The notes beneath the pieces were generated by a model that was given only the letters and a program-made list of their open reading frames with translations, searched no databases and had not been told where the DNA came from. Position numbers and translations under genes: made by a program. From Protoeuglena noctilucae (Eukaryota), in NCBI GenBank assembly GCA_958009085.1, contig OY253682.1, forward strand, positions 496,001-560,000: a DNA stretch of 64,000 nucleotides, written 5' to 3'. The first letter of the stretch is position 1; every line of letters starts with the position of its first letter. Shown here one piece after another: positions 1 to 17,879 of this stretch.

Positions 1-1389
1 GGCAGTCGTGGGAGGAGACTGCGTTCGAGCTCGAGAAGCTGCAGTGCGCGGGTGAGGGCGCGGCTGCATCGGTGCGAGGGCTCGTTACGGTGCGGGGGCG
101 TTAGCGGGTTGCGAGCAACCTGGCACATGGGGAGATGGGCATGGGAGCTTGAGAGCGCGACAACCGACTCTTCAGCAAACATAACTTGTCGTTATCCCTC
201 CGCGTCTCGCGATGCCCGCAGAGGAGTGCGTTGAGTCGGAGCGTGCGTGCCAAGAGACGCGTGTTGCCCACACCTGGCGCACGTCCTTCACCCCGGCCTT
301 CACGTCGCCGCAAGTGCTCGAGACCGCGAAGTCGCACCGCGTGGCCGTGATTCGCGAGGAGGGCTCCAACGGGGACCGTGAGATGGCCGCCGTGCTTCGT
401 GCTTCGGGCCTCGAGCCATGGGACGTCCACATGTCCGACCTCCTCTCCGGCAAGGCCACCCTCGATGGCTTCTCCGGCATCGTCTTCGTCGGCGGCTTCT
501 CTTACGCCGACGTCCTCGACTCGGGTGAGGCACAGCGTTGGCACGACGACACGGAGTTGGCACGACACGGTCACCCTGCAGCTGGGGTAGCAGAGTGCAC
601 CGGGGTTGCACCACGCTCGCTGCCGGTTCCGTCGGCGCAGTGCGAACCCCTTTCCTCCTTACACCCTCTTGCAGCAAAGGGCTGGGCAGGCAGCATCCGC
701 CTGAACCCGTCCCTGGCGGCTCAGTTCGAGGCCTTCTACGCCCGCCCCGACACCTTCTCGCTCGGCGTCTGCAACGGCTGCCAGCTCATGGCCCTCCTCG
801 GCTGGGTGCCCGGCCTGGTCGCGGGCGGCCAGCGCCCCGCCGAGGTGCACCAGCCGCGGTTCGTCCACAACCGCAGCGGCCGCTTCGAGTTTCGCTTCAC
901 CCAGGTCTCCATCGACGCGTCCCCCGCCATCCACCTCCGGGGCATGGAGGGCTCCTCCCTTGGCGTCTGGCTGGCGCACGGGGAGGGGCAGGCGCTCTTC
1001 CCCGACCCTGCCGTCCTCGAGACGGTGCGCCGCGACAAGCTGGCCCCCATCCGCTACGTGGACCCGACGGGGAAGCAAACGGAGCAGTACCCCTTCAACC
1101 CCAACGGCAGCCCCGAGGGCATCGCGGCCCTCTGCAGCCCCTGCGGCCGGCACCTGGCCCTCATGCCCCACCCGGAGCGGTGCTTCCTCGGATGGCAGCT
1201 GCCCTACCTCGAGGGTACGGGCTTCTCGGTGCGTGCCGGGTTGGTGTCTCGCGCGCAGTGTCGAGAGATGAGTTTGATATCTTTCGATGCACACGCTCCG
1301 ACCCCCCCTCGCAGGCCAAGGGACCGGGGCCGTGGCTCAAGCTCTTCCAGAACATGCGCTCGTGGCTGAACGAGGTTCGCGCAGAGTAG
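1..1389 (+). CDS. purL: Phosphoribosylformylglycinamidine (FGAM) synthase, C-terminal part (glutaminase domain); 5'-partial, spliced
   Basis: Motifs VAVIREEGSNGDREM, FVGGFSYADVLDS|AKGW, FSLGVCNGCQLM (catalytic Cys) and MPHPER. GT-AG introns 52-221, 525-674 and 1229-1314; stop TAG ends at 1389. Confidence 0.95.
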
Positions 1390-1532
1390 CCGGCGCTTGC
1401 GCCGGCGTTGAATCTAGAGTAAGATGGGCGGTTAAACGGGACAGAACGCGGGCAAGGTGGTGGAAGCCCGTGTTGGGCAGAAACTGGATAGATATATGCA
1501 TCTAAAAGCGGGAAGGTAGTTATCGCAATTTC

Positions 1533-1606
1533 GGGGTTGTGGACTAGTGGCCTATGTTGTCTGCTTTGGGTGCAGAAGGTCCCGGGTTCGAATCCCGGCT
1601 ACCCCC
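1533..1606 (+). tRNA. tRNA-Pro (anticodon TGG)
   Basis: Cloverleaf: acceptor GGGGTTG/CTACCCC (one U-U pair), D-stem GACT/TGTT, anticodon stem TCTGC/GCAGA with loop TTTGGGT (TGG at 1567-1569), T-arm CCGGG-TTCGAAT-CCCGG, discriminator C. No encoded CCA. Confidence 0.95.
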
Positions 1607-1610
1607 TTTT
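1607..1610 (+). terminator. Pol III terminator (T4) of tRNA-Pro, with further T-runs to ~1668
   Basis: TTTT directly after the discriminator base, followed by a T-rich tract. Confidence 0.7.
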
Positions 1611-1674
1611 GTGTTTCTTCGGGATTTGCCGTTTTGATGACGGAAAGTTGTTTCTTTTGTTTTCTTTTATGCGC

Positions 1675-1691
1675 GGGGTGCAAGAACCCGG
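1675..1691 (+). mobile_element. Left stub of an old retroelement 3'-module relic (element C)
   Basis: GGGGTGCAAGAACCCGG is identical to 9385-9401 in the LINE 3' module. Similarity resumes at 10360-10462 once the younger insertions are removed. Confidence 0.7.
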
Positions 1692-1694
1692 CGT

Positions 1695-1789
1695 GGGGGG
1701 ACTCGGACGCGCGATGGCGCGATCCGCCGGCCGCCTCCTCGTGGCGCCCTCTGGACACCGCGCCTTTATGGCCGGTGACGAAGAGCCGG
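1695..1789 (+). ncRNA. HDV-like (double-pseudoknot) self-cleaving ribozyme
   Basis: P1 GGGGGG(1695-1700)/CCCTCT(1747-1752) with G1-U wobble. J1/2 hairpin 1704-1726. P2 CCGGCC(1727-1732)/G[A]GCCGG(1783-1789). P3 GCC/GGC with L3 TCCTCGT. P1.1 CC(1737-1738)/GG(1753-1754). P4 CACCG..CGGTG. J4/2 CGAA with catalytic C1779. Confidence 0.85.
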
Positions 1790-2480
1790 TTCACAAAAAA
1801 TGGCGCGGTGGCGCGCAGTGCGGTGGTTCGGCGGTGGTTTGGCCAAGGTGGAGGCTGGCGAGTTGGCGAGGGGGTGCGGTTGGGTGTTTTGCGTGCATTC
1901 GCGACGGCTGAGGCGGTCGCATATCCCCTGGCAGGCGCCAGGCGGCAGCACGACGCGCTCGAGTTCTGCTGGTCGGGACAAGCCGCGCCCCCGAGTCTAG
2001 GGGGGCTTTCGGGGCGCTGCGCGCTGTGTGCGTGCAGAGGGACGGCAGGCTTTCGTGACGGGGACGCAGAGCGACCGGCGGGACGCGGGGACCGCGCCGG
2101 TGGGACCAGGGTGGGGTCCATTGTTAGCATGGGGCGAAAGTGCTCTGCGCCGCGGCATGGGGGCTTGTCTCTGCTTCGTTGCTTCGATGTTGTAATAGTA
2201 CCCAGGGGCCCGCTCGCGTGGCATCCTGCGGTTGCTCGTCCCGGCAGGGGCGGCGGTTCGGCGAAGGGGCTAGGGGCGCTGGAGCCCGGGGCGGCGGCCC
2301 CATAGCCTTAGGGTGGGGGGACCTAGCGGGGGCGGGCCAAGTGCCATATGCACTGCGATAATGGAACCCCCGGGGTGCGGCAGCTCCGGGGGAAGGCGCC
2401 CCTGTCGCGCGGGCCTAGCTCGTGCGGCGAGGATCCTGATGGACCTCAGCACCCTCAGCTATTGAACTGCACATCATCAT
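1695..2480 (+). mobile_element. Non-autonomous retroelement copy A1 (~786 bp, SINE/SIDE-like): 5' HDV-like ribozyme, LINE-related 3' module, (CAT)3 tail
   Basis: 1701-2480 matches 9580-10359 with ~6 substitutions by eye. Ends in CATCATCAT (2472-2480). Flanked by CGT (1692-1694 / 2481-2483), with identity extending to CGTGGGGGGACTCGG. No credible ORF. Confidence 0.85.
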
Positions 2481-2496
2481 CGTGGGGGGACTCGGG

Positions 2497-5400
2497 GAGC
2501 GGAGGCGTCTGGAGAAGCAACTGGGACGGGCGGAGAGGAGGGCGCAGCGGACGAACGCGACGGAGGACTGGGACCGGATGCTAGACCTGCAGCGCCAGCT
2601 GACGGTGCTGGAGCAGCAGGAGGTCCAGTGGCAGAGCGAGCGGGCGAAGCACTTTCTGCGGGTCTTTGGGGCCGTGCCGAGTCGGCGGATCACGGCCCAT
2701 TTCAAGTGGCGGCGGCGGGCTGAGGGCGTCACGGACGACCTCGCGCGGGACCTGCAGACCAATATGGCCCAGCTCTACGCCCCCGCCGCGCCCCCGGCCT
2801 CCGCGGACGGCCAACATGAGCGGGCGCGCGCCAACTTCCTGCGCAACCCGCGGTCGCCGCTGTCGGAGGAGGCGAGGGCCGCTCTCGAGGCAGACGTGAC
2901 ACGGGCGGAGGCGGCTGAGGCGATACAGGGTCTACGGGGCGACAGCTGCGGTGGCGCGGACGGCATCTCCCCGGCGCTGCTCAAGGCGTGCCAGGGCACC
3001 GGGACCGAGGCGGGCGTCGAGCGGGTGGTCGCCTACTTCGTCAACAAGCTCCTCCGCGGCGAGGGGCACGACGGCCGCCTCGCGAACGCCGCCATCACGC
3101 TCATCCACAAGGGCGGCTCGCGGACGGACTGGCGGCGGTACCGCCCCATCTCCCTACTGTCCGTCCTCTACAAGGCTTCGGCCAAGGTGCTGACGGCGCG
3201 GCTGCTGCGGGTGATGCCGCAGCTCGTGCACGAGGACCAGTTGGGTTTCGTCCCCGGGCGTGACATTGGGACGGCCATCTACTCGCTGCATCTGCTCGAC
3301 GAGCTCATGCGCATCCGGCGGCAGTCTGCGTGGGCGGTGCTGGTGGACTTCGAACAGGCGTACGACACGGCCTTCCGGGGGTGGGCTGCGGACGCGATGG
3401 CGTGGGGAGGGCTCCCGCCGCGTTTTGTCAAGGCGGCGGTGGCGCTGCAGAGCGACAGCCGGGCGAGCCTGGTCCTCAACGGAGCGGCGGGGGAGCCGTT
3501 CCCGCTCAACCGGGGAGTCAAGCAGGGATGCCCCCTGAGCCCGCTCATCTTCGTGCTGGCGGTGGAGCCCCTCGCAGAGAGGCTGCGGGCGTGGGGCCAG
3601 GAGCCGGTGCAGCTGCCGGGCGGCCCGCGGTGCGACCGCGTGCTCGGCATCCGGACGACGGGCGGCAGGGCCGAGACGCTTCTGGCCTTCGCCGACGACT
3701 TCAACGTGCTGCTCCAACGGCTCGTGGGGCGCGACAGGAACCAACTCGACCCGTGGCGGGAGCTGGCCGAGGTGCTGCGGGACTTCCACCGTGTGTCCGG
3801 GCTGAAGGCGAGCCAGACCAAGACGAAGCTCTACCGACTGGGACGCATCAACAAGCGGCAGGAGGCCAAGGCCGCCGCGCAGGGCTGCCCGTGGGGGGTG
3901 GAGCCGGGGGGCGTGCGGCTGCTGGGGGCGCAGACGAGAGAGCAGGCGGCGCTGGTGTGGCCCGGGCGGCTGGGGGAGGCCCTGCGCCGCGCGGACGCGG
4001 CGTCATCGCTGGGACTGCCGATCCGGGGTCGGGCGCGCGTCGCCAACGCCTACATCACCTCGCTCGCGGGGTACCACCTGGAGATGTCCCCCGCCGCCGA
4101 CCACTCGTGCGTCGCTGACCTGCGGAGGGTCCAGGAGCGCTATGTCCTCAACGCACGATCGGCGGGGCAGGTGTGGTTCCGTGTGGGCCGCATCATGCTG
4201 ACCGCCCCGCCGGAGGAGGGGGGGCTGGGCGCCCTCCCGCTGGACGCGCACACGGCGGCGCGGCGGCTCCGGCACCTGGCGCGCGCCCTCATCACGAAGC
4301 GCGTGGGCGCTCACGGCCAGTTGGGCGGTCTCGCTGGCATCCTCACGGCGTGCCTGGAGGGGCTCGGGGCAGGCCGGCTGGGCCTGCTGCCCTTCTCACT
4401 GCCCGAGACGGACGGTTGCCACGTGGCGCAGTTGATCGAGTCCCGCCGCCTGCAGGGCAAGCTGCCGGCGCTCGAGAGCTTCTGCGACGCCATCAAGGGC
4501 CTCGGGTCCCTGCGCGCGACCCTCGGGCCCGCGCACGCGCCGCCACCTCTGGCACCCACGACGGACGAGGTCGCCCGGCAGCGCTGGACCGGCCTGGCGG
4601 CGGAGGGCCGGCTGACGCTCAACTTCGACGGGGGCTCGCGGGGCAACGGCTCCGACACGTCCACGGCTGGCGCGGGGGGCGGTACTGGCGGCCGGGGAAG
4701 GCGAGGGGGTGGAGACGCTGGAGCTCGCGGGCCCCGCCGTGTGCGGGGCCTCCAACAACCAGGCCGAGTTCGCCGCGCTTTTGGGAGGGCTACGCGCGGC
4801 AGTCGAGCTCGGCGCCACCAAGCTCCGCGTCCGGGGGGACTCCCTCCTCGTCATCCGCGCCATGGACCCGCGGGACTGCTCGGTGCTGCGGCACCCGGCG
4901 CTGGTGCCGCTGTGGACCGAGGCGCAGAGGCTCGCGGCGGGCCTCGACATCACTTGGGAGCACGTGCCACGGGAGCAGAACGCCCTGGCGGACCGCCTGT
5001 CCAACGTGGCCATGGACGGGCATGGCTGGCGGGGGGCGCGCGTGGGCGGCGGGGGCCTGGCGGGCACGGACGGCTCGCGTTTCGCCTCTTCTACGGACTT
5101 CTTCACCCCCGTCACTGGGACTACAAAGGGGGATCTACTCTGCGCGTCGCTTCTCACCCCGGGGGTCCTCTGTGCCGCCGGCGGGGGGGCTCCGGGCGCG
5201 GGGGTGGCAGGCCTGGGGGCGCCGGCGATGGAGGGGGCAGCTGGCTCTCTCCACAACGACATGGGACAGGACCAAGACGATTCGGCCTCGTCGCTCCACA
5301 GCTTCGCGACGGGCGCCCATGGGAGGGCTGGTGGGGCGTGGGTGCACGACGGCGCGTCGGGCGACGACAATTCGGATGATGGGATCGACGAGGGGGGTGC

Positions 5401-6579
5401 TGGGCGGCCGGCGGGGGGCTGCCGGCCCCTCCTTCTGCACCCGGTGGGGAGGGCGATGGCGTTACGGGGATTCGGAACTGTGGGGCATTATCTCTGCATG
5501 CGGAACCCGGCGCGGCGATGGGAGACGTGGGTCTCCTGGGCGGTCGCGCTGGGCTATGATCGGCTGCCGGGGGTGGATCGGGGGGCCTCGGCTGGGTGGT
5601 TGGGGCTTTTATGCGGGACTTGGGCCTCCTTGGGCCGGGCAACGAGTACGCCCGGCCAGACGTGGAGGGGCAATGGGACCCGTGGGACGGGCTGGCGCTC
5701 ACGGAAGGCTTCATGGAGCGCCTGCGACTCGCCTCCCCGGGCGGCGGGGAGGCCAACGACTTCTACCGGCCCATGACGGCCACCGCGCCGGGCTGGGCAC
5801 TGGACCCCGGCGTCGCCTCCAAGGCGGCGCTGGACCTGGCCTCCTACACGGTGCGGGAGGCGGCGAGGACGACGTGTGACAGGGCGGCGATCCGGCAGCG
5901 GCTGGAGCGCAAGGCGGAGGGCTGGGCGGCGGCGCTGGGGGAGGGACACGGCTTAACGGGAGAGGGATTGAGGCGCACGCTGGTGGCGCTCAACGGGCTG
6001 CCGCTGTCGGACGCCCTGCACGAGCGGCTGTGGCTGACGCTGGCGGACGGGTGGGCTACGCAGGACAGGATGTACTGGGCGGAGCGGGACGAGTGCCCGC
6101 TGCTGACGGAGGAGGGGGAGGCGTGCATGGGAAAGGACAGCGCGGCCCACGCGATCTGGGAGTGCTCGCGCGCACGGGAGGTGTGGCGCGTGGCGAGGGG
6201 CATCGTGGCGTGGGCGGGGGGGGCGCAGGGGGTGCCCCTCCGCCCGTCGGCCCTCTTCCTGCTGCGCGTGCCGGAGGGCGCGCGGTTGGGGCCGCTCACG
6301 TGGGCGGTCGTGGCGGGGGCGACCGTGCAGGTCATCTGGCGCAGGCGGCAGCAGCTGACGAAGGACGCGGGGGCGGACGCGTCCCCGGCACAGCTGTTCG
6401 CGCAGATGACGCGCATCATGGCCGAGGAGCTCGTCGCTCTGGCGGCGTACCAGGGCGGGCGGGCCCTCGCGCGCTGCACGCACCCTGACGACGCCCTCTT
6501 ACACCCAAGGGACCCGGCGAGGTCCACCTTCACCTACACTGCGCCCACATGGGCAGCCGTCGAGCCGCTACTCCCCTGA
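2497..6579 (+). pseudogene. LINE ORF2 remnant: reverse transcriptase, RNase H and CCHC zf-RVT-like domain, with two compensating frameshifts
   Basis: RT motifs YRPISLL, VDFEQAYD, RGVKQGCPLSP, FADD, SGLKASQTKT. RNase H FDGGSRGN..SNNQAE..GDS..HVPREQNALAD at ~4612-5017. Zinc finger ECPL..C..DSAAHAIWEC. Frame shifts at G6 4674-4679 and at ~5569-5585. Confidence 0.85.
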
Positions 6580-6989
6580 GGGGGCCTCTTCATTCGCAGC
6601 ACGCCATCACCCCACGACATTCGGGCCGGGGCGCCGGCGCCGGACGGGTGGCCTTCGGGCTGCTCGTTCCGGCGTCGGCGCCCCGGCCAACTGGGGCGTC
6701 CACGGCCACACTGAGCATCTACGGAAGAGCCCGTCTGCCGGCTAAAACAAGCTCCCCTGCACCCAGGATGATATGGGCTGGAGTACCGCACGGCGGCGCC
6801 ACCGGCGACCCCCTGGGCTGCCTGGCCGGAGCCGGAGCCTGAGAGGGGCCGCAGGCGGGGGGTCCACGCGATGCGCGCGCAGCCGCAGGGGCGTGGGGCG
6901 CGCTGTGGCGGCAAGGGCGGGCGCCTCACGGGGAGGGTGCCGGCGCTCGGCACACCAAGGGCTTCTGCGCACCCACGCTCCATCTTTCG

Positions 6990-7880
6990 CATGCCTCGCA
7001 GGTTCTCGGACGCACACTCGACAGCTTTACCCACACGCCTTCTCCTCACCTGCCCCGCAGCCGGCCATGCCACCCCACCCCAATCCGCATTACTCCCACA
7101 TCCACCCGACCGCATTGCTCCCACCAGGTCCCTATGCCAGCCCACTGCCTTCCTATGACACACTTTCCACCCCCCACATCCCACTGCACACGCACCCTGC
7201 CCCAGCAGCACTCACCCGCATGCCACGCCTCCCCGTCCATGCCCGCAGCTAACAGGTAGATGCCTCTTCCAACCCGACCACACACGCCGTCTAACTATCT
7301 GCACGCACCCTCGTCACTCATCTCCCGATCTCGCCGCTCAGCACCAGTCTTGCCCACTCACCGCGCATCACCACTGACATACACACGTTCACCTCTCAAC
7401 CCCCTCTCCTCTTCCACATGGACCCCCACATAAACCACCTTCCTGCTCAGCACGCATCATCTCCCACCCCCCTCCTGCCAGCCCCACGCCACACCCTTCT
7501 CACGGACCACGCCCCCACACACACCTCACCTCACACGCCCAACCAGACTCGCCCTTTTCGCAAACCCTCCTGCCCCACGCACTCCCCCCCTAGCTGCACA
7601 GGTAAGGCTCAGCACCCTCTCCTCACAGCTAGTGCCCAGGTGAGCACACGCCTCCCTCAGCGCATCACTCCCCACACACCAAGCACCACATACTGATCCA
7701 GCACAGCATCTGCACCCCCTGACCTCCCCCAATCACGCACAGACCTCCTCGCATCCTCCCACGGGCACCCTCTTTGCCAGCCGCAGGTCAGGACCCACAC
7801 CAACACTCATCCTCCGTCACGCACACCGGCACCTCTCCCTGACCGCAGACCTGGACGGACGCGCACACGCACCCTTGCCT
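6990..7880 (+). repeat. C/A-rich, G-poor low-complexity tract in the LINE 3' region
   Basis: Visible depletion of G with many CCAC/CACAC/CCCC words, unlike the G-rich flanks. Confidence 0.7.
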
Positions 7881-8618
7881 CACCCTAGCCCTTTGCAGCC
7901 ATGCATCGCAGGCCCTTGGTGTCCCACAGCCGCCAGCGCTCACCCGGGGGGCGTCTGCTCCGTCGCCGTCGTGGCGCGCCCAGCACACCCACGGTACTGC
8001 GCGTGCCGCGTGGCCTCCCCGCCCGTGGTCCTTCAGGGGCTCTGGCGCTGGTCGGGTGGGTCCGCGTGGGGGTCGCCAACGCGTCGCCTGTGCTCCAGCC
8101 AACGTGAGAGACCAGCCCCGCTGGGGGGGGCTGGCAAAGGGTGCGACGGGGGACAAACGTCGGGGCAGAGCTGGCAGTAACGGGCCGAGAGACTCAGACA
8201 GTGGCGAGAGACGTGGCGCCCGTGGGGCGGAACGCCGGGGATATCGTGGGAACACCCGGCAGTGGCGCAGAACGGACCAGGCGCCACAGGATCAGAGAGC
8301 GGCGTGGCTGCGACGAGGCGGGGAGAGTGGGAGCGCAAGCGGGGCCGGAGGGCCTGTCTTTGGGAGTCTGCTGAGGAGGCCCTGCAGGAGAGCAACGGAC
8401 GGCGTGGGGTGCTGGCGCCCGGCATGGTGGCGCTGGCGGGGGCGACCCCTCGCGCGACACACAGCAGGGCAGCGGGCTTTTGGGGGCGGGCGCGATGGCA
8501 GCGCGGCAAGAGCGAGCGGCGGCGGCGAGAGTAACACAAGGGGCATCGAATGGTGTGGGTGGGCATGGGCTGGGCGACACAGGGGTGTCGGGTGTTTGGG
8601 GGGGCGACGGGGGCGCGA

Positions 8619-8696
8619 GGCAGGCCACGGTTATCAGGGCGCGCGGGTGCGCGTGTGCGGGGGGCAGGCCTCGGTTATCAGGCGCGCGGGTGCGCG
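8619..8696 (+). repeat. Direct duplication of ~34 bp (period ~44 bp)
   Basis: GGCAGGCCACGGTTATCAGGGCGCGCGGGTGCGCG versus GGCAGGCCTCGGTTATCAGGCGCGCGGGTGCGCG. Confidence 0.8.
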
Positions 8697-8706
8697 GAGT
8701 GGGAGG

Positions 8707-8863
8707 TGGGCCAAGGTCGTCAGCGTTAAAGGGCCAGGGTCGCCACAGCGTCGGTTGAAGGTCGTCAGCGCATTTGGCCAAGGTCGTCAGCGTGATGGGC
8801 CAAGGTCGTCAGCGTGATGGGCCTAGGTCGCCAGCGTGACAGGCCAAGGTCATCTGGGCGTGT
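8707..8863 (+). repeat. Minisatellite of ~7 units of ~22 bp (consensus GGGCCAAGGTCGTCAGCGTGAT)
   Basis: Units start at ~8707, 8731, 8753, 8776, 8797, 8819 and 8841; degenerate half-units continue to ~8935. Confidence 0.85.
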
Positions 8864-9579
8864 GGGGGCGAGGAGTTGAGGGACGGGCCAGGGCCGACGG
8901 GCGCGGGAGAGGACGGGCCAAGGGCCAAGGTCGACGTGCGGGAGCGAGGAGCGGGGTAGCGTCGTGGGTCTCTGGGCACACGGCCGAGTGGGTCGTGCCG
9001 GCGCACGCACCCGGAGCGGGGCGGTCTGGGGCGGTCCATATGAGAGGCAGCCGGCCCTCAGGGGCGCAGCGTGGGCGAGCGGGGCGCCCAGGGGCAACGC
9101 TGCGCCCCCCAAGGAACGCCGTCTGCGTTCGGACCGGCCCCACCGCCCTCGCGTCCGGGCCAGCGTGGCCGGGTGGGCGAGCCAGCCGGGCCGCCTGAGG
9201 AGGATGGGAGGAGGGTAGGGAGCGGGGGATGTCATGATTGGCCGCACATAAGCTACACAGATCGTCATTAGCCTCGGCCTCACCTTTTGTAATAGACGCC
9301 CGGGGGTCTCCACGGAGGGCCCCCGCGGCTGCAACGTCCCACTCCGGGACGGCGATTCTGCCTTCGGGCGCAGCGAGGGGGCTAGGGGTGCAAGAACCCG
9401 GGGTGGGCGACCCCTTTGCCTTAGGGTGGGGCGACCTAGCGGGGGCGGGCCACGTGCCATATGCACTGCAACGATGGAAACCCCGGGGTGTCAGCTGCCC
9501 CGGGGGACGGCACTTCTGCCGCAAGGCGTGGCTCTGAGAGTCATAGCACCCCTCGACTGTTGAATCGCTCATCATCATC

Positions 9580-10359
9580 ACTCGGACGCGCGATGGCGCG
9601 ATCCGCCGGCCGCCTCCTCGTGGCGCCCTCTGGACACCGCGCCTTTATGGCCGGTGACGAAGAGCCGGTTCACAAAAAATGGCGCGGTGGCGCGCAGTGC
9701 GGTGGTTCGGCGGTGGTTTGGCCAAGGCGGAGGCTGGCGAGTTGGCGAGGGGGTGCGGTTGGGTGTTTTGCGTGCATTCGCGACGGCTGATGCGGTCGCA
9801 TATCCCCTGGCAGGCGCCAGGCGACAGCACGACGCGCTCGAGTTCTGCTGGTCGGGACAAGCCGCGCCCCCGAGTCTAGGGGGGCTTTCGGGGCGCTGCG
9901 CGCTGTGTGCGTGCAGAGGGACGGCAGGCTTTCGTGACGGGGACGCAGAGCGACCGGCGGGACGCGGGGACCGCGCCGGTGGGACCAGGGTGGGGTCCAT
10001 TGTTAGCATGGGGCGAAAGTGCTCTGCGCCGCGGCATGGGGGCTTGTCTCTGCTTCGTTGCTTCGATGTTGTAATAGTACCCAGGGGCCCGCTCGCGTGG
10101 CATCCTGCGGTTGCTCGTCCCGGCAGGGGCGGCGGTTCGGCGAAGGGGCTAGGGGCGCTGGAGCCCGGGGCGGCGGCCCCATAGCCTTAGGGTGGGGGGA
10201 CCTAGCGGGGGCGGGCCAAGTGCCATATGCACTGCGATCATGGAACCCCCGGGGTGCGGCAGCCCCGGGGGAAGGCGCCCCTGTCGCGCGGGCCTAGCTC
10301 GCGCGGCGAGGATCCTGATGGACCTCAGCACCCTCAGCTATTGAACTGCACATCATCAT
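9580..10359 (+). mobile_element. Non-autonomous retroelement copy A2; its 5' stub is stranded at 2484-2495 by the LINE insertion
   Basis: Near-identical to A1 with (CAT)3 tail at 10351-10359. Ribozyme core is retained (~9606-9668), but the P1 5' strand GGGGGG sits at 2484-2489. Confidence 0.85.
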
Positions 10360-10462
10360 CGTGAGCGGCGCTTGAGCGCAACGATGGAAAACCCAGGGCG
10401 CCAGCAGCACTGCGAGGATGGCACTTCTGCCGCAAGGCGTGGCTCTGAGAGTCACAGCACCT
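10360..10462 (+). mobile_element. Right part of the older, diverged 3'-module relic (element C)
   Basis: GCAACGATGGAAA..GGCACTTCTGCCGCAAGGCGTGGCTCTGAGAGTCACAGCACC matches 9468-9550 with mismatches and an internal deletion. Possible tail remnant CATCA at 10541-10545. Confidence 0.7.
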
Positions 10463-10616
10463 CTCCTGGCGCATCACACCAGCGAACACTGATCCCGCCT
10501 GCCGTCGTCCGTTCGCTGGTTCACAATCACTGCTACTAGTCATCAGGTATCGCTAGAAGGAACATAAGTAGAAACCCATCGTCACTAGATCACAGTCACG
10601 ACTCTACGCAAGCACC

Positions 10617-13600
10617 CTACTCCTCCTGCAGCTCCACGGACGGCGTGGCTATCCCCCGCTCGTCCCCATCGCCAGCCCCCGCCCGCGCCGTCACCGGCTC
10701 ACTGCGACCTCCCGCGGGCGGCAGCGGGGCAATGGTCCGCATCCCGATGCTGCCCTGGAGCCTCCTCTGCACCTCGTACCTCGCCAAGAACCCCCGCACG
10801 GCCGCCTGCACGTACAGCGCCGCGTGGTAGTGGCCCACCGAGTACTTGGGAGGGTTGGTGGGGTCGTGCCCCACGGCCTTGTTCATCACCTTCCAGAACT
10901 TGAGCTCCTCTTTCGTATTCTGTGAATTGAGCTGGCCAAGCTCCTCGATCAACTGCGGGGGAGGGCGAGGGCGGGCGTCACGCCGCCGCTGCCACGGATG
11001 CTGCACCACGGGTGTTATGCCGCTGCTGTGCCTCTGCCTCAAAGCACGAAGCACGAGATCATGAGCCCTCACCTCGGGGATGTGGTCCAGGGCCGCGCGC
11101 TGGCTGAGGGCGTACAGGACCTCCCGGAAGGTGACGAGGCCGTTGCGGTTGGGGATGTCGCAGCTCATGATGAGCTGCTGCACGTAGGCGGGCGACACGC
11201 GCATGTCGCGCACGCCGAGCGGGGGCGCCAGCTCCGAGATGAGGATCGGGAGCTGCGCGGCTTCGATCTTCCCCGACCCGTCCAGGTCGTGCCGGCTCCA
11301 CACCTCCCTGCGAGACAGCGGGGCCAGGCGTGGATCAACACACGCGTCGACATCCGCGCGACGCAGCTCACGGATGCCCGGCTGCCCATCTCAGCTGCCG
11401 CCACCCCTTCGTCCGCCTCACCGGAACTCCTGCACGTGTGCCTTGTTGACCACGAGGCTCTCGTCTTCCGTAGTAGCGGTGAAGTTGTCGAGGATGATGG
11501 CTACGATGAGGTTGAGGAGCACGAGGGAGACGAACAGGACGAAGGAGATGAAGAAGATGACCGAGTAGGCGTAGCCATTCGTGCACTGAAAGCGGTAGTC
11601 GGTGTCTTGCACGAGTCCCAGCGTGTTCACGTTGGGCAGCTGGCCCTGGGGGCCGTTGACCCAGTCGCCCTCCGAGAGGCCCAGGGCGGGAATGTCGCGC
11701 AGGATGTAGCAGCAGCTGTCCACCACGGTGGTGTCCTGCATGATGCCGTCCCACGACTCGCCGGTGCTGCACCGGAACAGGATGGCCATCGAGTGCAGGA
11801 AGGTCTCGAAGTTGGCGTGGCTGCGGGGGAGAGGGTGAGGACAGGTGGGCGTAAGCGTGAACGTGACTGTTACTCTAGCATGAGAGCCTTTGGCGCGAGC
11901 AAGAATGACTGTGACTGTGGCATGACTGACTGCGGCGAAAGCATGACACAGCGCACATGCATACAAGTGCATAGTGCAAGCCACTCGTGCCGCGCAGGCG
12001 CCTCACCGAGTGATGAAGTCTTGGTGGACGATCTGGCCGAACAGCTGCATCCCCATGACGGCGTACATGAAGAAGAAGATGAGGGTCATGAGGCCCACGT
12101 TCCACAGGGCGGGCAGGGACGAGATGAGCGTCTGAAGGAGCACCCGCAGGCCGCGTGCCTTGGGGATGAGGCGGAAGATGCGGATGACGCGGATCACACG
12201 CAAAAGGGACACGATGCCCAGGTTGCCCTGCGGATGGAACAAGAGAGTTGCCGTCGCGCCTCATCGGCGTTGCTCCGGCCGACAAAACGCTCTTGCCCCT
12301 CATCGGCGTCGCCGGGAGCAACGACCAGGGGCCAGTCGGGCGCTGCGGTGCGTCGCCGCCACTGGGGCTCACCTGGGCCCGCAGCGAGGGGCTGGGCTCG
12401 AGGGCGATGCCGATGACGCTGGAGCTGACGACCAGGAAGTCGAAGATGTTCCATCCGTCGCGGAAGTAGGACCGCGGCCCGAGCCCCGTGAGCTTGAGGA
12501 TGGCCTCGATGCAGTAGACGGCCGTGAAAACCACGTTGGAGTAGAAGGCGATGCACTGCCAGGTGTAGCCCATGCCGTAGTGCTCGCAGGCCTGCGGGGG
12601 AGGGACGCCAGGGATGCTCATGGATGGATTTGGGCGCTGTGGGGTCGCGGATGCCGCTATATGCGACGAAGATCGATGAACACGCATGTGCATGTCATGT
12701 CCATCCATCCGCCGCCGCCATATATAGTCTCACCATGAAGCAGACGTTGACGACGATGACGGATATGATGAGTCCGTCGAAGCGCTTGCTGGTGGCCACG
12801 TCGTAGCAGAGCTGGCGCAGGCGGCTGTGCGCGGGCCTCGGCGGGCGCCGCATGGGGCTGCTGAGCAGCGCCATGCGCCTCATCGTGACCCACCGCTGCT
12901 GCGACTCGGTCAGGAAGACGTTGACGCCCTCGTTCTTGTCCTTCATGGCGTTGAACTTGTCGATGGTCACACCGACGAAGAGCTCGAGGAGGAAGAAGCT
13001 CGAGAGCGCCAGCCAGAGCACGAAGTACGCGACGTAGTAGACGCTGCTGTTCTGGATGGGCTGCCGGAGCTCCTTGGTCTTGGGGTCGTAGGGCCGCGAG
13101 TCGATGGCGGGGTACAGAATCTCGAGCCACATCTCGGTGCTGGAGACCTGGAAGAGTGTCAGCACGGCGGCGGCCGTGTTGTCGAAGCTCACCCGCCGCT
13201 GCTGCCACTCGGTGTTGACCGTGTAGGGCGGCACGGCCACGCCGATCTGAGAGTGGAACCAGGTGGACGTGGCCGTGACGGTGCCCGAGACGCACTCGTC
13301 GTAGCTGAAGCACTGCCCGTCGGGGCGGTAGAAGTAGCACGTGAGGTCGTCGCCGGAGTCGACGTCGACGCACCGGCTGTAGAGGCCGCCGAAGAAGTTG
13401 ACGCCCATGATGGCGAAGATGAGGTAGAAGAGGATGCAGACGAGGAAGACGTTGAGGATGGCGGGGATGGCGCCGAACAGGGCGCCGACCACCACGCGGA
13501 GCCCGGGGTGGCGCACGGCCATGCGCATGGGGCGGAGGGCGCGGGCCGTCCGCAGGGCGCGGAGTGCGCTCAGCTGCTGCTGCCGGAGGTGGATGGAATC

Positions 13601-16600
13601 GAGGACGTTGAGGAGGATGGAGACCAAAACGATGCAGAAGTCCAGCACGTTGAACCCCGAGCGGAGGTAGGCCTTGGGGTTGCCCACGAAGCCCAGGGCG
13701 GTGATCTTGAGGGCGGCCTCCATCGTAAAGATGACCGTGAAGACGATGTCGAAGGCGTGGAGCACCCGCTTGCGGGGGCTGCTGGGGTCGAGCCAGGGAT
13801 CGTCCAGGCACAGCATGATGGAGCTCCATAGGATGACGAAGAGGATGAACCACTCGAAGTAGCGGTGGCGGATGATGGCCACGGCCCAGCGGCGCAGCGG
13901 GTTCAGGTCCGGCTCGCCCGACAGGCAGAAGAGCGACGGGTGCATCAGCGCAATCTCCATGTCCCGCCTGTCCCGCGCCGCCATGTCCATGTGCTCCATG
14001 TCTGAAGTCGTGGACTTGGTGTACTCGCTCCGCTCCATCTCCGAGGCGCCGCCTGGCCTCGGCCCCGCGCCACCCTCCGCCCCGCCCCCGCCCGCCGGGC
14101 TGAGCGGCTTTGCACCCGCGGGGTTCATCCGCCGGTCGGACGCCCGCTGCATCTGCTGCAGCAGCGTCACCCGCGGGAGCGTCCCCGGCGCACTCCGAGC
14201 CGTGGACATCGGCCCTGCGGGGGACCCGTCGCCCCCGCCCCGCTCCGGATGGTCCAAGCCCTGAATCTGCACGCGCCGCTGCGACGGCGTCGACTCCAGC
14301 GGCGGCGTGGGCGTGGCCGACTCCGCCACCGGGCCCGGCCCCGAGCCCGCCGCCGGGCCCGGTCCCGGCCCGGACCCCGCAGGTCGGTCCCCGGGGGCCA
14401 ACTCATCGACCGACTTTGTCGCGGGTTCGATCCCCAGGAAGTCCGCGACGCTGCCCAGGAACCCGCGCTCGCCGGCGTCTGCGGCGCCCCTCCGCGACGG
14501 CGCGCGTGGCACCACCTCCAGTGACTCGGCCACCGGACCGGCCCCCGCCCCTCGCTGGTCCGCCGGGCGGCCGTTGCGAAGGAACACGATCAGGGCTCGG
14601 ACGGGCTTGCGTGCCCCGATGGAGGGAGGCGCCTCGCCCGCCTCGGAATGGCCTTCAAACGCGTCCAGGAGCACTGCCAGGAAGAGGTTGAGGCAGATGA
14701 AGTTGCCCACGACCATGAAGCACACGAAGTAGATGGCGGCGATGTCCGAGACCGCTTGCATGCCTGCGGGGGGCGGCGGGGAACGGCAATGACACTGGGG
14801 CATGCAATTGGGTACGCCCTGGGGCACGCCCCAAGGTGGAAGGCTCTGTTTACACGCCCGGGTGGCAGGCCCCGCCCCTCAGCCCGCCTCAGCCCTCGCT
14901 GGCCCGCACCTGTGTACATGAGGTTGTTCCAGTTCTCCTCACTGAGCATCTGGAAGAGGCTGAGCATGGCCCAGCCGAACGAGTCGAAGTTGCTGCGGGC
15001 GTTGTCGGCTGGGCCGACCTGCGCCTTGTACACCGTCTGCCCGCCCGACAGGAAGGACTGGCAGTAGGCTTTGCCCCCGTAGGGCGAGCCGTCGACGGCG
15101 ACCCATGTGTTGACGTCGGACGCGTCGCAGGGCACGTAGCAGTCGCGGTGGCTGGGGCAGGGCACCGAGCCGTCGTCCGGGCAGAACTGATCGGCGCCGT
15201 TGACGTCGCAGGTGGCGAACTTGTAGCCGAACAGCTGCATGCCTGCGGGACCAACGGAGGGGCGGCAGGTTAGACATGCGAGGAGCTGGCCTTGGCACTA
15301 AAGCTACCGCTCGCGCCGCTTCAAGTCCGCCCCATGTTTCCACACGCGCCTGCCCTGCAGCAACCCCGGCCTCGCCCAGCTCTCACCGAGGAGCGCGAAG
15401 ATGGTCATGATGAGCGCCATGATGAGTCCCAAGAAGGCGATGGACTTCAGGGACCGTCCCATGGTGGTCAGGATGCGCTGCAGCTCCTTCCAACTCTTGA
15501 CGAGCTTGAAGAGGCGGAAGATACGGAAGGCCCGGAGCACGGACAGGGTCGTGTTGTTGAGGCTCGGGAGCGTGGCAGCCAGGATGATCTCGGTGAGGGA
15601 GAGGACGACCACGAAGCAGTCGAAGCCGTTAAAGCTGTCGGCGAAGTAGCGGCGGAACCCGACGCCGGTCATCTTGACGAGCATCTCGGCGGCGAAGTAG
15701 GCCGTGAGGGCGTAGTTAATGTAGTTGCTGGCGTGGGCGTGCGAGTCCGTCTCTCCCCAGTACTCGGACGCCATGACGGCCGTGTTGAAGACGATGAGGA
15801 CCGACGTGAGGGCCTCGAGACGCTGGTCGAAGTACAGGTTCCAGCAGAAGCGGCGCACGGCCGAGACGACCCGCGGCCCCCGCAGCACGTCGTCGGGGAC
15901 CCTGCCCGCGTCGGCCGGGGTCAGCTGCCACGTCACGGTCTTCTCCTTAATGCCCATGGCCACCTCCGCCTCCCTCAGCGCCCTGGCCTCCTCCTCGTCC
16001 TCCTCGGCCTTGTCGCCCGCCTCCGAGAAGTGCACGCACAGGACGGCCAGGAAGAGCTGGATCATGAAGAAGGCGCCGAATATGGTGAGGATGGAGCTGT
16101 AGAGCCACGGCAGCCACGGGTTGTTGCCGTCCTGCAGCGCGTAGATGTCGTCCGTCCACCCCTCTGTCGTGATGCTCTGGAAGATGGCCAGCCAGGCCTG
16201 TGGGGAGGTGCGAGAGAAGATGCGCTTTGCACGCCGCGGCAACTCCAAGCCAAAGAAGCCAGCGGGCCCAGAGGCTGGCAACGGCGAGCACAGTCGCAGT
16301 CGCGCGTGCCAACGTGTTGCGGCACCCACCTGGAGGATGTTGTCGAAGGCGAGGCCGCCGCTGTCGGGGTTCTGGTACGGGACGCACATGGTGCCCGGCA
16401 CGCGCCCCTCCGTGACCCAGGGGCAGTGGAAGCCGTGGCCGAGGCTGGTGGTGGCGTTGAGGGCCAGCGACCCGTCCGAGCCCACGACGTAGGTGGACTT
16501 GTCCCCGCGGCGGCCCGTGCACGGCGTGGCGGTGAAGTCGTCCTCGTCGCTGGGCTGTGGATCGGGGAAGTACCACTTGATGCGGTCGTAGGGAATGATG

Positions 16601-17879
16601 TCGCCCGGGTCGAGGCCCGACAGGTCGGCCGCGGGCGACATGCAGCGCTGCTTGAGCGTGCCGCCGTACAGATTCACTCCGACGATGCCGAAGATGAAGA
16701 AGACGAACGTGCTGCGGGCGAGGACGGCAGCGGGCGGTGAGTTGTGGCATGCGGCATGTGGGCGGCCAGATATTGGGGTCCTCTGGGCATGCCCCGGTGG
16801 CTCACCACAGGACGGCCACGTCCATGAGCATGGGGAAGGACTTGATGAGCGTCGTGACCAGCACCCGCATGCCCTTGACGCTCTGGATGGCCCGGAGTGG
16901 GCGGAACACGCGCACGACGCGGATGGCGCTGACGTTTGCCGACGTGTTGACGAAGGGCAGCAGGGGCAGGATGCCCATGACCACCACGACGAAGTCCAGC
17001 ACGTTCCACCACTCCCTGCGTCGGTGGCCAGCGCAGGGGCGTTGCGTCACACCCAGCTGCAGCAGGCAGCGAAAGGGGTCGTCTGGATGACAAGAAGGCG
17101 CATTCACCTGATGTAGGTTCCCGGAGCGGCGAAGGCCCCCATGGCAATGACCTTTACCACCATCTCAGCACTGTGGACGGGGCGAGGGTGCGCATGAGTC
17201 GCTCCCCCCGGCTTTTCGCAGCCAAGCTACAGGGCACACCAACGCCGAAGCCACTCACAGGAAGGCGTACGCAAAGAAGGGCTCGGAAGCAGACAGCGCC
17301 CTCCCCAGCCGCGTGTTGCCGAACCCCGGCGCGTTGGAGCCCATCGCGAGGAAGAGGGTGTTGAGCAGGATGATGAGCAGAACCACGTAGCGGAAAGCCC
17401 AGTGCTCCATCGTGTAGATGGCGAGCTTGCGGATGGGATTGTTGAGCGAAAAGACGAACAGGGACTTCCACGGCCACACCCGGTCCTTCTCGCCCGTACG
17501 GTGGCTTTTCTCCTGCGCTCCGGCAACAAACCGCGGATTTCCAGCGTGAGGGGGCGCGAGCAAGCGCTTAATATGAGAGTAGCCGACAAGCACGCCGCAC
17601 CTTCAAACGAAGCAGGAAGCCCATGAACGCCTCGTCCTGGATCACTGGAGTCGGCTTATTCGGATTCACGCCGCTGATGAGGGTGCTCTGGGCGACCTCC
17701 TCCGCCGCTGGTTGGCTCTGCGCGATGGAGGGGGAGTTGGAGTGTGCACGGGGGCTTTCTCAGGGGCCTCGCCGCCCGGAAGCGCTGCCCGGTCTCCACC
17801 GACGTAGAGCCGGGGAGATGATTCGCGGGAGCAGGTGGTCGCAGCAAGGGAGCAGCTCGCTCGCCTGTTTCGCCGACAT
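10617..17879 (-). CDS. Four-domain voltage-gated Ca2+ channel alpha1 subunit (EEEE filter), multi-exon; 5' end uncertain (may extend to ~18090)
   Basis: Four S4 segments (IRVVRVFRPLR; LRAFRIFRLFK; LRALRTARALRPMR; LRVIRVIRIFRL). Pore loops TTEGW, SEENW, STEMW, TGESW. III-IV linker FLTESQQRW. C-terminal EF-hand-like and IQ-like (YVQAAVRG) motifs. Confidence 0.92.

Follow-up and report, generated by a model that had tools for sequence, protein, structure and literature searches.

A 64,000-nucleotide (nt) stretch of the genome of Protoeuglena noctilucae (contig OY253682.1, positions 496,001 to 560,000; here called the window, with position 1 as its first letter) carries a nest of non-LTR (LTR, long terminal repeat) retroelements immediately downstream of a proline tRNA gene. 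Comparison of this nest with other copies of the same elements leads us to propose, with reasonable confidence, that the family prefers the immediate flanks of tRNA genes of different identity (Pro, Lys-like, and Ser-like). The nest consists of a long interspersed nuclear element (LINE), present as copy B and as an older relic, C, together with two copies, A1 and A2, of a shorter element called A (Table 1). The tRNA-Pro(UGG) gene, which is directly followed by a TTTT run at 1607-1610, is the sole tRNA gene that ARAGORN finds in the window, and a search of 1400-10700 with Rfam returned no RNA family besides it. Measured from the end of this gene, the nest insertions lie at +69, +86, +86, and about +98, and C, A1, A2, and B are all on the + strand, which is the orientation of tRNA-Pro. 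The original prediction had described a tRNA-targeted family with a specific insertion distance. The association with tRNA genes held up beyond this locus, in the flanks called P0040 and P0055 below, but a single fixed distance and orientation relative to the tRNA is not supported, with P0055 and P0076 departing from the expected +70-100.

The anatomy of the nest was worked out from its junctions. Relic C begins 69 nt past the end of tRNA-Pro, and its 5' part matches the tail of B at 9385-9404 (17 of 17 positions identical, then 19 of 20). On the other side of the nest, 10378-10465 matches the B tail at 9468-9554 with 86% identity in a self-comparison of the window, and because the homology of C to the B tail continues across the A insertion point, A was inserted into C. 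This homology is plain up to about 10465 and the alignment is weak beyond, and the 3' end of relic C, which had been placed at 10545, is the only coordinate left uncertain; the predicted position of the tRNA gene and those of the junctions were borne out. The same self-comparison aligns 1701-2484 with 9580-10363 at 99.2% identity over 784 nt, and when A2 is rebuilt from 2484-2495 and 9586-10362, A1 and A2 are each 789 bp long and colinear, with 6 base differences between them. A1 begins with GGGGGGACTCGG; its 3' end, like that of the A2 body, is (CAT)3C plus GT, and a CGT triplet is found at 1692-1694, 2481-2483, and 10360-10362, which places the A junction at +86 from tRNA-Pro. LINE B is flanked by a duplication of ACTCGG (left copy at 2490-2495, right copy at 9580-9585), and a 3-nt CGG microhomology at the insertion gives this duplication a length of 3 to 6 nt. 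The junctions that had been proposed, with C at +69, A2 inserted into C at CGT, and B inserted into the A2 head at ACTCGG, were thus all confirmed.

The order of nesting that results fits the sequence, with at least three, and probably four, insertion events. Of the four that had been proposed, A1 is the one that could instead be a tandem duplication. If A1 arrived after B, the 5' end of B would have lain at about +98 from tRNA-Pro; if A1 arrived before B, it would have lain 12 nt after the A1 tail. The 6 differences between A1 and A2 gave no polarity for this order (3 are synonymous in the available frame and 3 are uncovered by other copies). No further copy of A, B, or C was detected elsewhere in the 64 kb by self-comparison, and no other transposon domains were present among the 65 window open reading frames (ORFs) of at least 230 amino acids (aa), in agreement with the earlier statement that the window contains no other transposon.

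The 5' junction of B was compared to other copies of the LINE. Full-length relatives read through the point at which B is truncated, and a contig from the sequencing runs described below that carries upstream LINE sequence meets the window at 2493. Since full-length copies cross the 5' junction of B, the copy is truly 5'-truncated and lies within the A2 head. The possibility that GGGGGGACTCGG is a native 5' head common to A and B, which would make the nest a plain tandem array, was ruled out by this read-through. P0002, a protein of another assembly, begins at exactly the junction between the A2 head and B, and is the same junction assembled independently.

Logan contigs (k = 31) of four sequencing runs were aligned to 1000-11500 of the window. 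Contigs of three runs cover 1000-1724 with zero differences and stop 30 nt into A1, which at k = 31 indicates a repeat boundary at 1695, and contigs of three runs also cover 10425-11500 with zero differences. Another copy of A in these contigs has (CAT)3C followed by different letters, which indicates that the GT at 2482-2483 is derived from the target, as a target duplication predicts. None of the joints listed cleanly removes C, A, or B, as would be seen for an empty allele (four runs, perhaps all from one strain). We considered whether the A1/A2 tandem or the whole nest could be an artefact of assembly, or whether A1 could be a tandem duplication formed between CGT microhomologies. Such an origin would account for the near identity of A1 and A2, which differ at just 6 of 789 bases, and for the junction between them being unbridged among the short-read contigs listed; the CGT-A-CGT-A-CGT pattern is also expected from slippage duplication. 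We nevertheless regard it as very improbable, because the outer junctions are without differences in several runs, the A2-head/B junction recurs in an independent assembly, B interrupts A2 only, and the GT after the first (CAT)3C comes from the target.

We then asked what lies upstream of the elements at other loci. The flanks were read from predicted "proteins" (designated by P numbers) that run from an element through its 5' end into the flanking DNA, an approach that is workable because this GC-rich DNA has reading frames of hundreds of codons on the strand opposite the elements. Six distinct 5' junctions were obtained, the window included, and 4 loci were assessable. In P0040, a full-length A head is preceded by a 97-nt spacer and, upstream on the same strand, by a type-I tRNA with the anticodon YTT (Lys-like), so that A starts at +98. 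This tRNA passes a codon-consistent A-box plus B-box test, in which the control used for both tRNA tests (342,309 nt of window ORFs) gave 6 false hits plus the true tRNA. Both P0040 (type I) and P0055 (type II) pass a second test, requiring a B box plus a cloverleaf with zero mismatches, for which the control gave 4 false hits, none of them type I. Cloverleaf threading on back-translated sequence, which gave 39 hits of type I and 118 of type II in the 684,618 nt scanned, was dropped as too permissive, as was a first T-arm scan. Within the P0040 spacer, a 14-codon stretch matches the A tail at 12 of 14 positions, a score reached by 1 of 300 shuffles; it is a probable older relic, judged from the peptide, that would begin at about +36 after the tRNA. 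In P0055, P0070, and P0071, a LINE relic of about 105 nt stands head-to-head with a type-II tRNA, probably a tRNA-Ser, which lies on the opposite strand at a distance of 149 nt. Overall, a tRNA was found within 150 nt at three of the four assessable loci, or at two of three when the discovery locus is left out. Against a background in which only about 0.9% of the window falls within 250 nt of the single tRNA it contains, three loci out of four are unlikely to have arisen by chance. At all three of these tRNA-adjacent loci, the 5' end of the element faces the tRNA.

Further tRNA joints were seen in the run contigs. In all four runs, and at a depth of about a single copy, a tRNA T-arm (to 1598) is joined to an A head that begins at 1696; in one of the four, a T-arm is joined to LINE position 8142. 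The first of these contigs may represent a third A locus, because the P0040 T-arm, judged from the peptide, seems too different to be its source. In several run contigs the match to the tRNA is confined to its 3' half (1561-1598) and the 5' half is different, so other tRNA genes share the T-arm and anticodon-arm sequence of tRNA-Pro.

An association of this kind might also arise passively, if insertion were random and copies were retained only in the few harmless gaps of a compact genome, with tRNA flanks among them. Genes are indeed close on either side of the nest, and without the nest the intergenic gap would be only about 350 bp, tRNA included. Flanks of tRNA genes nevertheless make up a tiny share of intergenic DNA, yet a tRNA is present within 150 nt at two of the three further loci, and neither the clustering of insertion points at +36 to +100 nor the constant facing of 5' ends to the tRNA is expected from selection alone. 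We therefore view passive survival as improbable.

Several observations weigh against a preference for tRNA flanks. Only 4 loci could be assessed, and the tRNAs at loci other than the window were deduced by degenerate back-translation of peptides rather than read from DNA. The geometry of P0055 is not that of the nest, since its relic lies about 149 nt upstream of a tRNA on the other strand, head-to-head with it, instead of at +70-100 downstream. The relic in P0076 has no tRNA in the 144 nt of its upstream flank, P0043/P0054 and P0041/P0042 show too little flank for a judgement (87 and 39 nt, respectively), and the LINE in P0062/P0064 abuts an unrelated ORF at its 3' end, with its 5' side unseen. 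A motif scan of 1607-1700, downstream of tRNA-Pro, found no external B box with one mismatch or fewer. In the nest itself, A1 may have arisen when A plus CGT was duplicated in tandem through microhomology, and not by a fourth insertion. Finally, head-to-tail arrays are frequent, with a 5'-truncated copy often starting 0 to 42 nt after the (CAT)n end of another. Repeated hits on the flank of one tRNA would give such arrays, but so would insertion beside an older tail, and the arrays do not separate the two.

The arrays bear on the possibility that the elements prefer older copies of themselves and that the tRNA is incidental to the first arrival. Self-nesting is known from the Zepp and Zepp-like LINE clusters of green algae, in which copies nest in one another, and the LINE copies studied here likewise nest into or beside one another in one orientation, with new copies inside older ones. 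Three of the four events in the window fall within older copies, and the 5' end of B is 12 nt past the A1 tail. At other loci, a LINE tail is followed by a truncated A (P0043, P0044, and P0067), an A tail by a LINE relic and then a LINE (P0052), and a LINE tail by 42 nt and then a relic (P0074), and the run contigs contain joints of 2481 to 9525, of 10360 to 2423 across 34 nt, and of 2438 to 1695 across 19 nt. Unlike those of Zepp, the nests described here adjoin tRNA genes and have insertion points that vary within older copies: these are about 175 nt before the end of the LINE tail, at base 12 of the A head, and inside the A tail, with no common sequence or position. The first arrivals, in contrast, are themselves tRNA-adjacent at three different tRNA genes (C in the window, the probable relic in P0040, and P0055). 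We favor the targeting of tRNA flanks both for this reason and because the insertion points in older copies lack a common sequence yet cluster in their distance to the tRNA, and we consider self-nesting as the primary cause unlikely.

If tRNA flanks are targeted, a single LINE/A family pair would have generated the nest by target-primed reverse transcription at each event, with all events falling 69 to 100 nt downstream of tRNA-Pro and in the same orientation. The feature recognized would be the tRNA-bound RNA polymerase III (Pol III) transcription complex or its chromatin rather than a DNA sequence, and A would be mobilized in trans by the LINE machinery. Repeated hits on one tRNA, within a 60-nt-wide window beside it, would then produce nests and head-to-tail arrays in which the newest copy is nearest the tRNA.

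The coding capacity of B was compared to that of its relatives. B contains a reverse transcriptase (RT) domain (Pfam RVT_1, E 3e-24) and is without the domain of an apurinic/apyrimidinic endonuclease (APE). By tblastn, it matches residues 351-1711 of P0034, a full-length relative of 1711 aa, with two frameshifts, and indels in B at 4674 and 5579 relative to other copies in the run contigs match these two frameshifts. Judged from its sequence, B is a dead copy that has lost its APE domain and carries two frameshifts. The nearest relatives of B in the protein collection are ORFs of 1311-1711 aa with APE, RT, and RNase H (RVT_3) domains, and in P0034 Pfam places Exo_endo_phos at 32-262, RVT_1 at 563-798, and RNase H at 1058-1188. 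The LINE family has a single long ORF that encodes APE, RT, RNase H, and a cysteine-rich C terminus; in P0030, the 153 residues that precede the APE methionine showed no ORF1. At 3 kb, the 3' untranslated region of the LINE is unusually long, and a 65-nt imperfect palindrome is present at 6624-6688 of the window, right after the stop of the B ORF.

The relationship of A to the LINE is apparent at their 3' ends. The A tails at 2261-2408 and 10140-10287 are 83 to 84% identical to the B tail at 9373-9522 over approximately 150 nt, and all three elements end in (CAT)3C, at 9570-9579 in B, 2472-2481 in A1, and 10351-10360 in A2, with no poly(A). Other copies also have the (CAT)3C end, which is seen as MMM in opposite-strand translations. 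Because the last 150 nt or so and the terminal repeat are common to A and the LINE, we regard A as a non-autonomous element, most likely copied by the enzyme of the LINE. In stringent LINE-SINE pairs (SINE, short interspersed nuclear element), the partners have a common 3' tail, as A and the LINE do here. A is 789 bp long and has no Rfam match at E values up to 1; without a tRNA-, 5S-, or 7SL-like head, it is not a canonical SINE. Nor did tblastn reveal any similarity between A and the LINE region upstream of the APE domain in P0030.

Additional LINE copies were found outside the window. P0058, which lies elsewhere on the same 1,004,614-bp contig as the window, is a second copy whose tail differs slightly, and P0049 and P0075 belong to a diverged LINE-tail subfamily with about 81% peptide identity, so the family has more than one lineage. 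Joints across 2646-2938, 6274-7532, 8564-9310, and 8581-9485, some with 15 to 25 filler letters, occur in contigs from three or four of the four runs, so internally deleted LINE variants exist among the copies. Relative to the flanks, the summed contig depth was approximately 27 to 64 times in the bin of the LINE tail and 6 to 11 times in the A body, values that are not copy numbers. In P0062 and P0064, on a 502,807-bp contig, an ORF on the opposite strand adjoins the 3' end of the LINE; it is low in GC, about 120 residues long, and has a P-loop-like motif. This ORF has no Pfam match at E values up to 0.01 and may be a host gene that was disrupted, or DNA of foreign or virus-like origin. With a 28-nt word from the LINE tail, exact-pattern scans of metagenome, prokaryote-genome, and viral contigs found nothing, and in a protein-guided scan of metagenome contigs 599 stretches matched, of which none was confirmed.

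Table 1. Features of the tRNA-Pro locus and the retroelement nest, in window coordinates
Feature	Position	Strand	Remarks
tRNA-Pro (anticodon TGG)	1533-1606	+	ARAGORN; Rfam RF00005, 54.7 bits
Relic C, 5' part	1675-1694	+	5'-truncated LINE tail; ends in CGT (1692-1694)
A1	1695-2483	+	789-bp non-autonomous element; self-comparison, rebuilt pieces
A2 head, first 12 nt	2484-2495	+	Separated from A2 body by LINE B
LINE B	2496-9579	+	5'-truncated; 7.1 kb; inside first 12 bases of A2
B ORF remnant	~2494-6576	+	Frameshifts near 4676 and 5581-5593
B RT	~3130-3837	+	Pfam / tblastn of P0034
B RNase H	~4615-5008	+	Pfam / tblastn of P0034
B 3' untranslated region (UTR), 3 kb	6577-9579	+	22-nt tandem repeats at 8707-8849
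B conserved tail	9373-9569	+	Followed by (CAT)3C at 9570-9579
A2 remainder	9580-10362	+	Right ACTCGG copy 9580-9585, body 9586-10362
Relic C, 3' part	10363-10465	+	LINE-tail similarity; decayed end may reach ~10480-10545

The nest is situated between two genes. An ORF of the PurL-type amidotransferase class (185-1369) precedes it, and a multi-exon ion-channel gene follows it on the opposite strand, from approximately 10.6 kb to 17 kb. At 11878-17046 (- strand), Ion_trans domains occur in four ORF pieces, which look like one multi-exon, multi-domain gene for a voltage-gated cation channel. Other ORFs in the window encode an Na/H exchanger, WD40 proteins, a kinase, Vps16, ClpB, a radial-spoke protein, and a biotin carboxylase.

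Among systems described in other organisms, the closest analogues are TRE3 and TRE5 of Dictyostelium, an analogy of behavior and not of shown kinship. TRE3 inserts downstream of tRNA genes at 40 to 150 bp and in the same orientation, with ranges of 14 to 305 bp, TRE5 inserts upstream at about 50 bp and in the orientation opposite to that of the tRNA, and both TRE targeting in general and, according to a 2018 review, downstream insertion in particular are confined to dictyostelid genomes (PMC5911963, PMC5006619). TRE3 resembles the family studied here in being an APE-type non-LTR element of a gene-dense genome and in its tie to tRNA genes of many identities; at tRNA-Pro and the Lys-like tRNA, the family also lies, as TRE3 does, tens to approximately 150 bp downstream and in the orientation of the tRNA. 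The present family differs from TRE3 in that it ends in (CAT)n rather than oligo(A), has an RNase H domain, a 3-kb 3' UTR, and the non-autonomous partner A, shows no separate ORF1 (the TRE lineage has two ORFs) and no external B box, and resides in a host that is not an amoeba. The P0055 relic, upstream of a tRNA and in the opposite orientation, recalls TRE5 and NLTR-B, but its distance of about 149 nt exceeds the approximately 40 to 54 bp of TRE5, and it is a single case. We lean slightly toward the view that integration guided by the Pol III complex evolved here, in a marine flagellate with a compact, GC-rich genome, without shared origin with the TREs of dictyostelids, and that the element's 5' end faces the tRNA in every case (same orientation when downstream, opposite orientation when upstream). 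Ties to tRNA genes are also described for NeSL-1_TV, LIN15_SM, and LIN25_SM, which are sequence-specific LINEs with a restriction-like endonuclease that each insert within one tRNA species (PMC4640811). In contrast to these, the family described here has an APE endonuclease and is found outside the gene, at Pro, Lys-like, and Ser-like tRNAs.

No report of LINEs targeted to tRNA flanks in algae was found in open-access full text, with subscription papers and Repbase-type reports outside the reach of that search. Targeting of tRNA-gene flanks is the textbook safe-haven case for transposons in compact genomes, and to our knowledge it has been documented for non-LTR elements only in social amoebae. 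If the preference proposed here is true, non-LTR elements would have their first such case outside Amoebozoa, and insertion downstream of tRNA genes its first outside the dictyostelids. The preference would then represent an independent invention, in which the same solution to safe landing was reached convergently across supergroups, and would provide a second system for asking which feature of a Pol III gene a LINE recognizes. An explanation would also be at hand for where streamlined genomes, such as that of this marine picoeukaryote, accumulate their few repeats.

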